Below are positions 1 to 46,089 of a stretch of 64,000 nt of DNA, in pieces (the first letter of the stretch is position 1; every line of letters begins with the position of its first letter). The notes under the pieces were generated by a model that saw nothing but the letters and a program-made list of their open reading frames with translations, did no database searches and had not been told where the DNA came from. The stretch is from Torpedo marmorata. Its lineage: Eukaryota. A program made the position numbers and the translations under genes. The stretch is from positions 44,826,001-44,890,000 of the forward strand of contig OZ360236.1 of NCBI GenBank assembly GCA_977017645.1, written 5' to 3'.

Positions 1-1697
1 TTTACCATTATTTATGAAAATTAAAAAAGATTTAGAAAGTTGGAAGGATTTACCTATAACTTTAATAGGAAGGGTAAACTGTATTAAAATGAATGTCTTT
101 CCAAGACTTCAATATCTTTTTCAATCAATTCCTTACGAAATCTCTTCGAAATTCTTTAAGGAATTAAATTTAATTATTAGGAAGTTTTTGTGGAAAGGAA
201 AGTTGGCTAGAGTTGGTATGGAGAAGTTAACTTGGAATTATGAAATGGGTGGTTTACAACTTCCTAATTTTCAAAATTATTATAAAGCAGCTCAATTAAA
301 ATTTGTTAATGAAATGTTTGATTTAGGTAAGTCTTCTGCTTGGATTAGAATAGAACTAAATAATATAGGAGAAGATTTGAAAGCAGAAGTTATTTATAAA
401 TGGAATTCTAAATTATTATTAACAAGAGGGAAGAATTCTCCTATTTTTAAACATTTGTTAGAAATATGGAATAGAGTGGATTGGGAGATAGGAGGGAAAG
501 GGTCGATTTCTCGAAAAATGCCTTTATATCAAAATAAACTTATTCCTTTTACTGTTGATAATCAATTATTTAAAATTTAGTTCCAAAAGGGAATTAAGAA
601 AATAAATGATTGTTATTACTATTCAAAGAATGAAAGATAAGTTTAATGTATTGAATAATACACTTTTTGATTATTATCAAATTAGAGCATTTTTAGTTGG
701 GAAGTTAGGTTATAGTTTGATTCTACCAGGACAGATTGAACTGGAATTATTAGTTACTAATGGAGGTGTAAATAAATTTATTTCTCAAATGTATAGATTG
801 TTACAGAGAAAAATGCCTAAATCAGGAATTCCAAATCAAGATTAAAATGGGAATTAAATTTGAATGTAACAATAGATGAGGAACATTGGAAATAATTATG
901 TAAACTAAGTATGACCAAGATTATTAACTTTAGATATAGATTCGTCCAATATAATTTCTTTCATCAATTATATTTAACGCCTAAAAATTTAAAGAAATTT
1001 AATTCGACATTATCAGGTTTATGTTTTAGATGTAATAGAGAGGAAGGTTCTTTTGTACATTCTACATGGTTTTGTCCAAAGATATATGATTTTTGGTTGA
1101 AAGTTAAAAACATCTTAGATAAAGTATTGAATATTACACTTCCAAAGGACCCTATGATATTTTTGTTTGGAGATATTAAAAGAATTAGTATTAAAATGAA
1201 ATTAAATATGTATCAAATAGAATTTTTTCGAATTGCTTTAGCTGTTTCTAAGAAATGCATTGCTATTACTTGGAAATCTGATGTAGATTTAGGGTTAGAA
1301 AGATGGCATGCAGAACTTCGTTCATGTATACCACTTGAAAAAATTACTTATAATTTACGTAATAAATATCATTTCTTTTTGAAAGTATGGAGCCCATATA
1401 TAAAAACTGTTGTTTTAAGGATTTGAACATCTCTGGATATCAGATCTGACTGGCGAACCTATCTTCCACAATAAAATCAGTTTATAGTTGTTCTTTTTTA
1501 GATTGACATTCTCCTTACTCTATCTTTTTCTTTCTTTCTTTCTTTTTTATTTTATTAGATTAGTAGGTGCGGAAGGGTTAGGGAGGGGAGGGAGAGAGGG
1601 GGGGGTGAAAATGTATCACATGTATTTTGATAATTTTATATTTTACTTTATGTATTTTGTGATTTAAAAATTTTAAATAAAATATTTTTTTAAAAAA
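1..1697 (+). mobile_element. L1-clade LINE, family A, 3' portion (ORF2 C-terminus, 3'UTR, short A tail); continues left of the window
   Basis: ORFs 14-580, 606-845 and 911-1426 give the L1 ORF2 C-terminal half (GRVNCIKMNVFPR, GGLQLPNF, zinc-knuckle region CFRC..H..W.C). A G-rich 3'UTR tract and AATAAA-ATATTTTTTT-AAAAAA follow. Closely similar to the copies at 14.7k, 21.6k and 47.1k. Confidence 0.93.
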
Positions 1698-2966
1698 GAG
1701 AAATGCATAGCTACTTACTGTTGCATCCCCGTTCTTGGTCTTGATATGTACAGGCACTATTGAAAGTTTGCAGTTATCCACACTGGCCCCAGTAAGACCA
1801 CTTGTCAGAACTAAGACTGTAACACTGTTTTCTGATGTTTCCTTTGTTTCTGTTTGCTCCTTTTCCAATTCCTTGTTTCTTTGATGGCTATGCAGTATGC
1901 TAGGATGCTTCAAATTGCATATGTTACAGTTAAGTCGCTTCTCGCAGTTTTTACTGATGTGCCCTTTACACAGACAGCTAAAACATACTCCATTTTCCTT
2001 TAAGAAAGCGATCTTCTCATTATGTTCCTTCTTTTCCAACCGTAAACACATTTCCAAAGCATGTCCACCTTTAAAGAACAAACAACTCTTCTCATTAGGA
2101 AAACTTTCCTTTTCCTTAGTTACTTTAACTTTTTCTTTATTTATAACTGACACAGTAGTAGCAAAGGTACTCCCTTTTAATTTTGGACTAGGCTGTGAGT
2201 TAGACCTCCTGACATCTTTGTTCCTCATTGAAGTGTCTCTGGTATTTCCATATATTGGATCTGTTTTAGTATACATCTGCCGTTCAAGGAAATCTACCAA
2301 ATCCCTTAAGGTAGCTCTTTGATCATATTTTTTCTGGAAATCACAAGCCAAATTTTTCCATCTATCCCACATCCGGTAGGGTAATTTATCTAAGATTATT
2401 CGCATATTACCAGGCACATCAAGCTCACGAATATTATCGATATCTTCCATGGCATAACAACATCCTCTTAAAAAGAGAGTGTATACTTGTAGAGCTTTTA
2501 CATCATTCAGCTTTATTGATGACCATTTAAAATCTTTATCCATATAAGCTAAAGCAATTTGATGCTTGTAGCCAAAATGCTGTTCTGGTAAAGACTTAGC
2601 TCTGTCTAATCCTCTATCCGAGGACATATGTTTACAACTCTTTACAAGTTCCCTTGGCTGTCCTTCTGTGAACATTTCCAAATAATAAAGACATTCTTCA
2701 GGGTCTTGGCATTTATTTTCAATATTGCGTCTAAAAGATCTCATGAACGCTTGGTACTGAAGTGTGTCACAATCAAAAGCTTGTATCTCTTTCTTGGGAA
2801 AAGAAGAGAGAGACTGTAGCTGGATCAATGATGCAGCGATTTCATTTTGTCTTACCATGGATGATAGTACGTTGCTCTGTTCACCGCCTCTTGTAACAAG
2901 TAATATATCTTGAAACCTCACTGGTGTTGGTTCTCCCATATTTCTAATGCTTGACTCGAATGCCAA
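1698..2966 (-). pseudogene. BEL/Pao Gag C-terminal half and truncated aspartic protease
   Basis: The 462-aa ORF is BEL-like up to YAFL; its last ~40 aa are read-through into the antisense L1 3'UTR. Confidence 0.8.
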
Positions 2967-4130
2967 GGAAGTTTCAGTGTTTGACCAAACCCAAGCCGCA
3001 GCTTTATCTGCCAGATGTTACCACTGGTACATGTTTATTGATAACACGATGCTCTGAGAGAATTTGTCCTGTTTTTTGCATGTCTTGTACCCGTGGTACT
3101 AAAATATCTACCTTTTTGGCTGGTTTCCTTTCCTGTGGCTCTTTTTTAAAATATGACTTCTTGTCATCATATACTTTAGATAATTTATTCCGAACACCAG
3201 ATACCATTGAGCCTTCTAGTACCTCTATTCTGGCCATGGTAATAGCAATGTTTGCTTCCAGCTCTTGCTGCTCCTTTCTCTGCCTTAGCTGCTCCTTACT
3301 CTGCCTTAGCTGCTCTTCCAAAACATTATTATCCTTAAGTGAATTTTGTCGTGCAAGAAGAGCGGCCAATTCAGCTTTAATCATTGTACGTGACGATGCA
3401 GAGCTTGAACTATGAGAAACTCTGGTGCTTAAACCAGAAGAACTTTGTTTGCTTCTCCTGCTTTCAACATTTGACACACTGTCACTTGATTGTATTTTGT
3501 CCTGCAGGTCAGATGTTGTCTTCTTACTTACCTCTTTCTCCAATTTGAATTGTACATCCTTTGCACCTTCATCCTCTTAATTTTCTTAATCTTTTTCATT
3601 TTCTTCATCACCATTTGGTGACACATCTTCAACCATTTCCACGTTGCTGTCTTCATGTTCAGTCGTTGTCTTCTGCACTGGTTTTGCAATGTCTTCATTC
3701 CCATCAACCGAATTTGTGGCTTCTTCCACCGCCAGCTTCAGTCTTGCAATGAGAACACTTTTATTTCCACTTGTATCTAGTTTCCTTCACCTCAATTCTT
3801 CTTTGAGATCCGCAACCTTCATGTCTTAAATACGTTGCTCCTCAACAGCAACGTCAGCAGCTGCTGCAGCCATTTTACTCGTCTTGTACCACCGTCCATC
3901 GAGCATGCACAACACAAGCCAAATCAACAGTCCCCAATGGACTAGTGGCAGCAAAATCCAAACTGTGTTCAAACTTGCCAAAGATACACAGAAGGATTCC
4001 ACAGATTTATGCCTACCACTTCAGATGGCTGTAATGTGCTGCTATTAACAAACGAGTTTCCACCACAACATCCATCAATAATATCACTGATTTTCAAGAA
4101 ATGGCTCCACTAATGTGTTTATAAGACACT
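1698..4130 (-). mobile_element. BEL/Pao LTR retrotransposon remnant (gag and start of protease), interrupted by the L1
   Basis: ORFs 3004-3543 and 1578-2966 contain FDCDTLQYQAFMRSF, three BEL-type Cys/His knuckles (CLFFKGGHALEMC, CFSCLCKGHISKNC, CNICNLKHPSILH) and the protease start IVPVHIK..SYAFL. The 5' boundary and LTR are uncertain. Confidence 0.85.
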
Positions 4131-6000: not shown

Positions 6001-6972
6001 ATAAATTCTGGGCAGTTCTTGTGGGGATGCCAAGGGTGAAATAACTTACATTGCATTGGAGGCTATTTGGGCCAACTCCTGTAAGTGGTGTAAAACGTGT
6101 CCCCTGTTTTCCTCAACTATCCTTGGATGTTCTTCCTTTTCAAGTGCATATCCAAAAAGAACCATTGAACATGGTTTCAATAGCCTATCAGTATCTCATT
6201 GAATTTATAACTCACAATTTATTTTGAGAATTCAGCAGAAGAATCGAGGAAATAAAGTAGAAAATTAAATCACAGAGGAGTAAGAGCCAAGAACTACAAT
6301 TAGAAGTTAATTATTATTGATTCGTTTTAATATTTTGCATTATAATCATATTCAACACCACTCCCTAAATGTAGTTGTATGGAGCTCAAAGCACATTGGT
6401 AAATTCCGAATGTAAATCAGCATAATCCAACTGGAATGGTGGATCTAGGCAATTAACTTCAAATGTGAAAGCAAAGGTTGACCTAGCTGATCATGAGATA
6501 TTTCAACAGTAGGCAAATGATTTCTTTTTAAAAAAAAAATTATTTAAAAATTTTAATCACACATTTTAATCATACATGTTTACAAAATTCAAAATTATCA
6601 AAATACATGTGATATATTTTCACCCTCCCCTCCCTCCTTTCCCCCTCCCTAACCCACCCACCCCTACTACTCTAATAAAATAGAGAGAAAAGAAAAAAAA
6701 AAGAATAAAATGTGGAGAATGTCAATCTAAAAGAAAAAACAACTACATTAATTTTATTGTGGAACACAGGTTCGCCAGTCAGACATGGTATCAAGAGATC
6801 TTCAAATCTTTAAACCCACAGTTTTTGTATATGGGCTCCATACCTTCAAAAAGAAATGACGTAGGTTGGAGACGTAGGAATACACCTCTCCCTACAGAAC
6901 TAATTAAAAACTGTAAAAGAAAAACTTTATTTGGTTATTAAAAAGTTAAGATCATTTATTAATGATTGAAGA

Positions 6973-8451
6973 ATGACTACAAGAAAAGGGAAGGAGCAAA
7001 AGTCAAAGAAAATAGTTCTTAAAGAAAGTTTAATCCAAAAAGAAGATCGGCCTACCTTAGCGATGGAGCCTCGGGATCAAATTCCTCTCCCTCTCAGGAG
7101 GATGCAGACAAGGACGGTCAAGGTAATCACAGCATCAGCACCGTCCTCCCGGGGAGCTGGGGAAGATGGAGCTGGAGCTGGAAGGAAGACTGGAGAACTA
7201 CAAAAGGAGAATGAACAACTGCGAATGCGCGAAATGGCGCGCATGCACGAAAAGCAACAGGAGCTGTCAACGTTAAAGAAGAATCTATCATTCTATCCAA
7301 TATAATGTTGGAGAAGAACTGTCATCATCAAGGGATTCAGAAGATAAAGGGAGAAAGAAGAAAACATATGAAAAAATGGAGAGAGAACTAGAAGAGATGG
7401 AGGGAGAGGAAAGAGAAATAAGTGGAGGAGAGGAAACTCAGTTATTTCAAGGTAAACAAGAAATATCAGCTACTCTTATTCAAGCTATAAATAACTTAAC
7501 AGAACAAGTGTCTACAATGAATCAATGTATGGAATATGGATTCATAGCTATAGATAGTAATTTTACTAAGTTTAAGGAAGAAATGAAAGACATTAAACAT
7601 AATATGAAAAAATGTGCAACTGCTGTGGATAAAGTAACACTGAAAGTCCAGAAAGTTGAAAATGAGGTTAAAGAATGTCGTGAAGAAATGGTGGACTGTA
7701 AAGATATAGTGGACAAAATGGAAAATTCATTTACAGGCTGGGAACAACAAAGAAATGAACTTTTACAAAAAATAGATACATTGGAGAATTATAGTCGGAG
7801 AAATAATGTTAAAATTGTGGGATTGCCCGAAGATTATGAAGGGATAAATTCAACTGAATTCTTTCAAAATTGGATTCCAAAAGCTTTGGGTAGTGAAAAG
7901 TTTGCAAATGGACTTGAATTAGATAGAGCTCATAGAGATAACAGAAGGAAACCATATCCTGGACAAATATCACGCTCAGTGTTAATTAGGTGTCTTCGTT
8001 ACCAGGATAAAGAGAAGATATTGAGATTAGCTGTTCAAAATGCTAGAAAGAAACAAGGTCTATTGATGATCAATAAAAACAGGGTATTTTTTATGCCGAT
8101 TTAAGCGCAGCAATAATTAAAAAACAAAAAGAATTTAACCCAGCCAAAGCAATTTTTTGGAACAAAAGATATAAATTTTCATTTAGATATCCTGCGATAT
8201 TGAAGGTACAGTCTGGAGAGACTCAGTCATCTTTTTTTACTGACCATCAAGAAGCTTTGAAGTATGCTAATTCACTCCTAAATTTAAAGAAAGATCAAGA
8301 TCTGATTGGGCAATCTCAAGCTATTATGGAACCGACTCAGGACTTATTACGATTAACAGAGAAACTTCAAGTAACTTCAGGACAAGAAGATGTGGCCGAA
8401 ATAGATGATGATCAAGTTAACAGAGATCTTGAAAATGCTGGACTGGGATGA
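6973..8451 (+). pseudogene. L1 ORF1p (coiled coil, RRM/CTD, Transposase_22-like), frameshifted
   Basis: ORFs 6973-7305, 7376-8104 and 8200-8451, with motifs LENYSRRNNVKIVGLPE, LELDRAHR and RSVLIRCLRYQDKEKIL. Confidence 0.88.
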
Positions 8452-24879: not shown

Positions 24880-26073
24880 TATAGATCCATCTTTGACATC
24901 ATTGTTGATCAAAAACTTTTACAATTCCGCCTGTTGGTTGTCCGCCTGCTGGTTATCTGTTAACGTGTTTACGTATTCCTCTGCATGTGCATAATTTGAG
25001 AAAAAATTATTTTCCCCTGGTCGTAAGAAAATCTTCAAAGTGGCAAGATGTCGTAAAACAAATCTATAACCTTTTTTTCCACAGGGCTTGCTTCACATTG
25101 TTAAATTCTTTTCTTCTTTTCAACAACTCAAAACTTATATCAGGATAAAAGAAAATCTTGTTTCCATGAAACTCCAGTGGGCCTTTTCTCACTTTAGCTC
25201 CTTGCGCTGCTGCTACTAATATTTTCTCTCTATCTTGATAACAAAGACATTTTATTAATATTGATCTTGGTTTTTGATCTGGTGGTGGCCGTAGTCTCAA
25301 AGCTCTATGTACCCTTTCAATTTCAATAGGTTTATCCTCATTTTCTATTTCCAGAACTTCCAGGATCCAAATTTGAAAAAAATTATCGGATCTTCGCCTT
25401 CTTCACCTTCTTTAAGGCCAACAATTTTAATATTATTTTGTCTACTGAAGTTTTCTAATAAATTTATTTTTTCCCAGAGTTGTTTTCTTTAATTAACCCA
25501 TGCGTCTGTAGTATTTTCCATTCTATCTTGCACTTCTTCCATTCTCATCTCCAGATTTTTAACTTTATCATCAACTTTGCCCAATTTATTTTGCACTTTC
25601 ATTACCACATCAAAGTATTTCTTCATTTCTACTCTTATCTTTCTTAATTCTTTCATTAATTGTACAAGTGTATATTCTTCTTCGCCTTTCAGCTTAAGTT
25701 TTCTACTTTTATCTTTGGAAACTTCAGTAGGATTTATTTCTTCCTCTGCTGCTTCTTCCTCCTCTTCTTTGTCGCTGGACTGGAATTCAATGTCTTCGCC
25801 GACATTTTGTATTTCTTGTGATCTGCGCATGCGCGACTTCTCGCGCATGTGCAGTTCCACTTCTTCCTCTTCGAGATCTTCTGCCTGCAGAAGCAACTGT
25901 GATGGCGCTATAGAGCATCTAACAGGCCCTATAGGGGCCTGCTTCGGCCGGGGAGGAGCTCTCACCTCAACTCCCGGATCCATCAAGACGGTGGGCCTTC
26001 TTTCTTGTTCCTGTCATTGTTCTCATTGTGTTCCCGACGGGCCAGCGAACTTTCTTTGTTTTTTAGGTGACAT
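24880..26073 (-). pseudogene. L1 family B ORF1p, frameshifted
   Basis: ATG at 26073 (MSPKKQR), acidic stretch, coiled coil, RPPPDQKPRSILIKCLCYQDREKIL and FFYPDIS. Confidence 0.85.
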
Positions 26074-26217
26074 TATAAAATTGTTCTGAAATAGTTTTTG
26101 AGCTTTTTTTTTTGTATTTGGTTAACAGTATTTTGCTTATTTGGCACTTATTAAACTAATTCCCGGGAGAGTCAGATTTCTACTTCCTGACTCTACTACA
26201 TCACGTGACGTCCCCCC

Positions 26218-45446: not shown

Positions 45447-46089
45447 TGAAATCGTAATATGAGAGAATTTAAGACTCTTACCTTAGTGTTCAGTGACGCG
45501 TCCTCAGCCTGTGCTCGTCGAAGCCTGTCGAGTCAAAGCCGGTAGACTTCCACTCCTTCGCTGTCTCACTCACTCGCCTGGGCCGCTCACTTGCTGCCGC
45601 TCCCAAACCTGACCTTTCGTCTACCACTACCACTGTCTAATCCTAACCAGTTTCCTTTATTACTCCCACCTGCACTTCCTATTCAATTACTGTCTCTGCA
45701 CTGAACAGCAATCCCCACTTAAATCGTTAACCCTTAATTAACTACTAAAATGACCACTCTACTCACTCACACGTCGGTACAGCTGATTCCCGCCTCTTGG
45801 CTCCTTGCCAACTGGACCTCGACTGTGGTAAGGCTTCCTTACTCTTTTTAAATCTCCCTCCCTGCCTACGTCACCACACGCCTGCGCACTAGCCCCCTCC
45901 CCACTCTTAAGATTAATTTAACTTCCCTACTTTAGATTTACACCAAAATAAACATACATTTCAGATATTATTTCAAAGATGAGAATATTATATATGTACA
46001 GTAAAATAAATGAATTGATTTACACAGCTACCTGTATGAAGATGTTCCTGCTCTCATAGAAATATACGGACGAGCAAAAAAAATGTTTT

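Follow-up and report, generated by a model that had tools for sequence, protein, structure and literature searches.

An NRF1-type 12-mer in the ORF1 codons of Torpedo marmorata L1 elements, a candidate core of an internal promoter module

Paired NRF1-type sites in two L1 copies

Two L1 copies in a 64,000-nucleotide stretch of the Torpedo marmorata genome (contig OZ360236.1, positions 44,826,001 to 44,890,000; hereafter the window) carry, within ORF1, two 12-mers that resemble the binding site of NRF1. What keeps such a sequence in the coding region of a retrotransposon, where it could serve as regulatory DNA, as structured RNA or as protein code, or be a by-product of template switching? A sequence-only reading had proposed an internal promoter module or, alternatively, a conserved RNA hairpin. 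Both strings are present where it had placed them, in L1-A on the forward strand and in L1-B on the reverse strand, and in both copies the 12-mers are inverted relative to each other and separated by a 6-nt spacer. The first site lies 247 nt (L1-A) and 220 nt (L1-B) into ORF1, counted from the ATGs at positions 6973 and 26073. The CpG-dense patch described for ORF1 was recovered as a CpG peak around the motif. The word YGCGCAYGCGCR, with up to two mismatches, gave 12 strand-hits in the window, as opposed to 1.33 expected, and none of 100 shuffles reached 12.

All features of L1-A lie on the forward strand. Its 5'UTR (6856–6972), delimited by blastn of the lineage consensus to the window and by family 5' ends, lacks about 13 nt at the 5' end. 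The previously noted length of 113 nt therefore describes this copy and not the family, in which the 5'UTR measures approximately 130–133 nt; the 144 nt given for L1-B were confirmed. The unclipped A-family 5' end starts with a GC-box-like word. Translations place the N-terminal extension of ORF1, which carries the module, at 6973–7275; the frame of this copy is broken near 7270, and letters are missing near 7275. The extension contains an upstream inverted repeat, H0, with a GGAG loop (7127–7182), which covaries across the A lineages. Its 3' arm is formed by a YY1-like word, AANATGGCG (7163–7171), and downstream of it are the word ACTACA (7197–7202), which is the THAP11-type half of the M4 motif and occurs in two reading frames across the A lineages, and the two NRF1-type sites. 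Site 1 (7220–7231) is kept in all A lineages, whereas site 2 (7238–7249) is eroded or absent in many of them. The deviations of this copy at 7170 in the YY1-like word, 7224 in site 1 and 7247 in site 2 are private, and contigs of four public runs carry the consensus letter at 7224 and 7247. The depth of these contigs collapses across the palindrome (window 7238–7279), and short-read assemblies may therefore under-represent it.

The 144-nt 5'UTR of L1-B (26074–26217, reverse strand) begins with a word that we take to be E-box/CRE-like. A YY1-like core at 25901–25908 is read on the forward strand, reversed relative to L1-B, and its letters GATGGCG are exact in five of the six B clusters. On the reverse strand, site 1 (25842–25853) carries a G-to-A variant fixed in the subfamily, site 2 (25824–25835) is perfect, and a short inverted repeat follows downstream (25789–25806); the analogous hairpin of A differs in sequence.

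Both copies have the architecture of L1 elements, with an ORF1 composed of a coiled coil, an RRM and a CTD, followed by an endonuclease ORF2, read by eye as an endonuclease-like translation downstream of ORF1 in each window copy; relatives of the protein are named LINE-1 ORF1. Pfam assigned the motif-bearing ORF1s to no L1 family, and Transposase_22 gave no match to them. The N-termini of A and B, which the sequence-only reading could not otherwise align by eye, are distantly homologous. The motif nevertheless remains their best DNA match, as it does within nt 130–480 in all six lineage pairs tested.

Conservation of a single 12-mer at the DNA level

The exact paired core with the 6-nt gap gave 4,507/4,528 strand hits in the 6.2-Gb genome and none for the reversed control. 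With approximately 4,500 exact copies, the pairs in the window are typical of the genome. An ORF1 match was found at 34 of the first 35 paired-core places fetched. To avoid circularity, elements were also sampled independently of the motif. Two 5'-end patterns, the words of which mark at least ~19,000 elements in the genome, provided 100 places (98 after duplicate removal), all within the initial 84 Mb of a single contig. Given that number of elements, thousands of latent NRF1-type sites are expected across the genome. Further samples comprised 44 B-type copies identified by protein search and 17 loci found by their Pfam ORF1 family; the latter belong to a clade with short ORF1 N-termini, and none of the 17 has an NRF1-type site near ORF1. 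Once 13 duplicates had been dropped, along with 16 loci whose 5' end could not be recognised, the 169 elements that had a 5' end formed 62 clusters, which were divided into lineages A, B, C and D and other families (E). The four lineages have mutual identities of 48–65% in the RRM and CTD; their tree is unrooted and omits 21 of the 169 elements for want of RRM sequence. Four of the 54 A–D clusters (14, 16, 23 and 54), each of them a lone copy in which a deletion or tandem repeat affects the region, were excluded.

The pair with its 6-nt spacing, put forward as the conserved unit, did not withstand this sampling. It is present in 26 of the 50 clusters, and the other 24 have a single site. Likewise, the 98 copies sampled by 5' end include 28 with the pair, 57 with one site and 13 with none (eight from E-type families with an E-box-type 5' end, four with a deletion or tandem repeat at this place, and one decayed). 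These counts identify the conserved unit as one 12-mer at +346 to +389; the 6-nt spacing is ruled out as such a unit by slippage, one-unit loss and the single-site lineages. One amplified subfamily (43 of 62 matches) has its second arm broken, and its relatives lack site 2 entirely. Lineages in which one site is weakened keep the other intact.

The core GCGCNTGCGC is kept in all 24 multi-copy lineages, in 43 of the 50 clusters and in 71 of the 98 copies sampled by 5' end. In the 24 multi-copy lineages it is located 346–389 nt from the element 5' end, and none lies outside nt 280–480. No other 8-mer within the first 1.4 kb, including any word of the RRM, is shared as widely as GCGCATGC, which occurs in 44 of the 50 clusters. 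The ten core letters carry 1.7–2 bits of information, the Y and R ends approximately 1.1 and 1.4 bits, and positions outside the 12-mer at most 1.05 bits, in an alignment that is anchored on the motif and thus partly circular. Centre variants of the 12-mer, which change M to V or T, coincide with the free central N of the NRF1 consensus GCGCNTGCGC, for which binding data on variants are given in PMC10810270. Among the single changes listed there, the G-to-A variant found in site 1 of L1-B is the mildest, with a Kd of 0.66 compared with 0.31 μM.

The 12-mer shares its reading frame with the first ATG of ORF1 in 24/24 multi-copy lineages and always encodes the peptide RMR; NRF1 words were looked for in the other reading frames and none was found. 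The region is therefore coding, and its use dual. RMR is encoded within nt 130–560 in 70 of the 98 copies sampled by 5' end. Among the 170 arginine codons of RMR, 161 are CGC, 7 CGT, 2 CGA and none AGA or AGG, whereas CGC accounts for 32 of 534 arginine codons in the remaining N-terminus and 11 of 570 in the RRM/CTD. The codon preceding RMR encodes T, P, L, S, M, V, Q or A, yet its third letter is G in 76/76 sites. When the codons of 19 lineages were recoded synonymously, 2,000 times per lineage, a perfect 12-mer arose in no more than 0.15% of the trials for any lineage. Conservation of the motif at the DNA level, including synonymous sites, and its match to the NRF1 consensus were thus borne out by the lineage and codon tests; family consensuses devoid of the motif, or conservation confined to amino acids, were not what we found. 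The constraint on the 12-mer acts on DNA letters and not on protein. A constraint on the RMR peptide of ORF1p, to which the constant reading frame and the RMR or HMR in ORF1s of four ray genera might point, is scarcely credible given the absence of AGA and AGG from the arginine codons and the fixation of M to V or T and R to H in lineages, and codon use has already largely refuted it.

Template switching makes the arms of a palindrome alike and flips its spacer (PMC8604942 and PMC8794818). The spacer is inverted in 12 of 63 pair copies chosen independently of the motif, all of them stop-free in frame, which shows that template switching is active at this palindrome. Micro-inversions of the 6-nt spacer were observed at L075, L079, L080, L083–L085, L120, L123, L127, L152, L201 and L217; one 18-nt unit was lost in L090, L117 and L178, and slippage by 6 nt occurred in L198, L199 and L215. 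Sorted by arm state to look for a link with arm repair, loop inversions are few: 0/43 with broken and 1/19 with intact arms (scored by eye), and 0/6 compared with 1/6. It could be argued from the frequent inversions, one-unit deletions and slippage that template switching alone keeps a functionless palindrome perfect. We consider this neutral explanation very unlikely, because the 12-mer persists in single-site lineages, which have no second arm to serve as a template, and because the CpG-rich word resists decay in master lineages while it decays in copies and the flanks diverge.

RNA folding, neighbouring words and the proposed module

The paired 12-mers do not behave as a selected RNA hairpin, the second proposal of the sequence-only reading. 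Half of the lineages are partnerless, and mismatches are uncompensated in 5 of the 16 multi-copy pair lineages. Changes on both sides of the 12-mer stem are restricted to the degenerate outer pair, largely between B and A, and to two loop-inverted copies. Folding of the wider region is strong in A, B and C (z approximately -2.5 to -8) and weak in D (z of -0.7, 0.0 and +1.8), and the sense and antisense strands fold about equally well, with no clear asymmetry. In the A lineages, 93% of the 503 cells of the H0 stem are paired; five pairs have changed on both sides, and G-U toggles are numerous. The covariation score of H0 is 0.305, compared with 0.224 after shuffling (0/500), and corresponds to approximately five to six events counted by eye in a region where template switching is active. 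The loop letters GGA are invariant, and the 3' arm is formed by the YY1-like word, which is fixed even where pairing permits change. At the tip of the stem is a GGAG tetraloop (window 7146–7155, alignment A1 columns 44–49) that hardly varies and is also known from the HIV-1 SL3 packaging signal, perhaps by coincidence. An RBFOX-type reading (UGCAUG) was rejected since the letter that precedes GCATG is C. Further downstream, a stem shows covariation at two of its inner pairs, and short stems of other sequences stand at a similar place in B and C.

The folding of the wide region and the covariation of H0 make an RNA role possible, in addition to or instead of a role of the DNA. In its full form, this explanation holds that the region is a chain of hairpins in which the 12-mer is an RNA–protein or RNA–RNA contact for ORF1p loading, translation control or the completion of reverse transcription. 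The covarying upstream stem of A, with its invariant GGA loop and many G-U toggles, and the stems further downstream in A, B and C are consistent with it. We nonetheless judge it unlikely: the 12-mer is partnerless in 57 of the 85 site-bearing copies, the broken-second-arm subfamily was amplified, folding is weak in D and similar on the two strands, and template switching can yield such covariation without selection (PMC8604942 and PMC8794818).

Words that resemble factor-binding sites stand around the 12-mer in varying frames or orientations. In 35 of the 44 A, C and D clusters, AANATGGCG is exact and positioned 30–78 nt upstream of the NRF1-type site. Its N position encodes D, H, N or Y, and its glycine codon is GGC in 41 of 44 cases, compared with 98 of 392 in the background. 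The YY1 label follows the degenerate YY1 consensus. The word is in sense orientation in A, C and D and antisense in B, where it is approximately 55 nt from the NRF1-type site; in one C lineage the YY1 core is gone and the hairpin is retained. ETS-like words are found in sense orientation in some C and D lineages and antisense in A2. ACTACA, a THAP11 site according to PMC5006282, is directly upstream of the site in 30/30 A clusters (19 in frame 0, 9 in frame 2 and 2 in both) and absent at the corresponding place in B, C and D. Being short, the ACTACA and ETS words are individually weak evidence. YY1-like words were also seen in other frames of ORF1 in families without the NRF1 site (L193 at +396, L145 at +229 and L197 at +214), and in the D-type 5' region of L133 the ORF1 N-terminus has expanded to a ~60-nt tandem array upstream of the expected NRF1 site.

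CpG density reaches 4–6 per 50 nt at +250–400, compared with approximately 1 or less downstream. Among the copies, 14% of the CpGs in this island have decayed, in comparison with 17.5% outside it (p 0.005; of 98 paired comparisons, 58 are lower and 33 higher). The slower decay of the island was not seen in B, and it is not specific to the motif, the CpGs of which have decayed by 13% compared with 14% in the rest of the island and show no difference from those elsewhere in the N-terminus (p 0.56).

From the letters of the DNA and their pattern of conservation, we slightly favour the explanation that the 12-mer is a likely NRF1 site forming the core of a downstream internal promoter or enhancer module in ray L1 ORF1. 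Factors at the 5' terminus would set the start site, and NRF1, together with YY1, THAP11 or ETS factors, would bind new unmethylated copies approximately 350–390 nt downstream of the 5' end. From its place at +320–410, the module would raise the output of full-length sense RNA by the short 5'UTR, in the manner of the +390–526 region of human L1 (PMC7778262) and of NRF1 at mouse IAP (PMC12420836), and methylation would switch it off. Because it is positioned within the transcript, the module would be copied into every full-length daughter. One site would suffice, with the second as a lineage-variable extra copy, and the hairpin and frequent loop inversions would result from two palindromes standing 18 nt apart. 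The host has the putative partner: five DNA-binding exons of NRF1 are present on one contig, and the exon with the base-reading residues can be aligned to structures of human NRF1, in which the NVR stretch is identical (by inferred residue numbering). The element shares with L1 internal promoters a transcribed, CpG-rich 5' part, although one located in ORF1 instead of the 5'UTR. Other L1 families in the genome, including ones with a short 5'UTR, do without the site, which counts against the promoter-module explanation, as do the distance of the site from the presumed start and the mouse result that loss of NRF1 did not reduce L1 ORF1p.

The same module might instead act mainly as an antisense or alternative-start promoter in ORF1 that tunes or limits retrotransposition. 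The palindromic NRF1 sites, the antisense YY1-like core of B and the antisense ETS-like words of A2 would allow this, the mouse L1 ORF1 antisense promoter is a precedent (PMC3985663), and the human +390–526 region also starts alternative transcripts (PMC7778262). Orientations are mixed, with the YY1-like words of A, C and D in sense, and selection across many lineages would more simply favour a feature that raises the copying of the element; we therefore regard an antisense role as rather unlikely. A broader version of the sense-promoter explanation is tentative and, on balance, doubtful: the ray L1 clade may have moved a part of its promoter into the protein, so that the N-terminal extension of 80–90 residues would largely carry a dual-coded module of housekeeping type (YY1, THAP11/ETS, NRF1) at a fixed 5' distance, overlaid by RNA hairpins. 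The second, inverted site would then serve as a template from which decayed CpGs of the first could be restored by template switching.

Relation to other elements and known systems

The closest named ORF1 relatives come from rays. Mobula, Hemitrygon, Hypanus and Narcine have ORF1s with RMR or HMR at the same place, a comparison made at the protein level only; the peptide is missing from two further ORF1 types of Narcine. In NCBI gene models of Hemitrygon akajei and Hypanus sabinus, a TRIM RING/B-box is fused in frame to nearly the whole L1 ORF1, and the models P0004, P0152 and P0153 form one cluster at 90% identity across the two stingray genera. The fusion is possibly a domesticated gene and, as such, a candidate anti-L1 factor, or possibly an annotation artefact.

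NRF1-type words also occur in other retroelements of T. marmorata. A spaced-pair pattern gave 37,810 matches, which are mostly of an LTR type among the first 50 places, and this abundant element has two NRF1-type cores per LTR in the two elements examined. In L051 (710–1313 and 5928–6530) and L052, perfect cores are 24 nt apart and upstream of TATA-like words. The element has a period of approximately 5.2–5.5 kb and is tentatively BEL/Pao-like, from a by-eye similarity to window 1578–3400 and a weak DUF1759 match; Pfam gave no class for its long ORF. The 5' region of a CR1-type LINE has an NRF1-type word with 1,370 matches. Copies of this LINE, which has an esterase ORF1 (window 45877–45888, reverse strand, and L233–L244), combine GC-box, NRF1-type and CRE-like words, and some copies repeat the 5' region in tandem as 279-bp monomers, as is the case in mouse L1 promoters. 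A second L1 clade (L096–L112) has the zebrafish-like start ACTTCCGGT and an ORF1 with a short N-terminus, and it lacks the NRF1 site; its copies L096, L104, L105 and L110 are located inside a shared larger repeat.

Several components of the proposed module are already known separately: short 5'UTRs in fish and frogs, internal L1 promoters, a promoter that overlaps ORF1, and NRF1 on retrotransposons. The sequences add an NRF1 consensus fixed clade-wide in L1 ORF1 codons. Our search found no published NRF1 sites in L1 ORF1 codons and no published ray L1 promoters, of which Repbase, subscription papers, figures and supplements could hold some.

The 5'UTRs had been called tiny by contrast with mammalian L1s, and their lengths make them similar to those of other non-mammalian L1s. 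Lengths of 0.14–0.16 kb are normal in frog and fish L1s (PMC5381506), and short-UTR families without the site exist in the ray genome, which weakens the contrast. The frog 5' end GGGGGCGTGGCC resembles that of A. In lizards, the 5' end of clade 1 bears an ETS-like word and ATGGCG, and that of clade 2 contains TGCGCATGC, which we, and not PMC5381506, read as a probable NRF1-type word. Unlike those of the ray elements, the frog and lizard words are at the extreme 5' end and not in ORF1; that paper covers no shark or ray, and the word "shark" has no occurrences in it. In housekeeping "cardinal" promoters, a similar set of GC-box, ETS, NRF1, CRE/E-box, YY1 and GFY-type words is found, and NRF1 sites tend to co-occur with their own copies (PMC3820735). 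NRF1 sites there are typically within -150/+50 of the start, whereas the ray module is in coding sequence at +320–410, with the NRF1-type site 346–389 nt downstream if the 5' end is the start.

The human L1 5'UTR promoter has an internal enhancer at +390 to +526 (Alexandrova 2012, as reviewed in PMC7778262). As in the ray, this is a CpG-rich cluster of factor sites several hundred nucleotides past +1, within the transcript and with a YY1 word nearby. The human cluster is untranslated, unlike that in the ray ORF1 codons, and NRF1 has no occurrences in PMC7778262. The mouse L1 ORF1 antisense promoter resembles the ray module in that promoter-type sequence overlaps ORF1, and it was tested by synonymous recoding; it differs in being antisense and limiting transposition, and the passages of PMC3985663 considered mention no NRF1 site or CpG patch.

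In mouse germ cells, NRF1 binds unmethylated L1 and IAP promoters, and it is required for IAP, whereas its loss left L1 ORF1p not lowered (PMC12420836). The ray elements share with these the same factor, as a candidate, and the germline logic of unmethylated retrotransposon promoters; unlike in the ray, it is LTRs and the monomers of 5'UTRs that contain the mouse sites. According to a speculation by Boissinot and Sookdeo, non-mammalian L1s depend on a conserved host factor. The present analysis names NRF1 as a candidate for this factor in L1s with 5'UTRs of 130–160 nt, with its site in coding sequence. If this is true, the methylation-sensitive NRF1 route of mouse germ cells would extend to cartilaginous fish.
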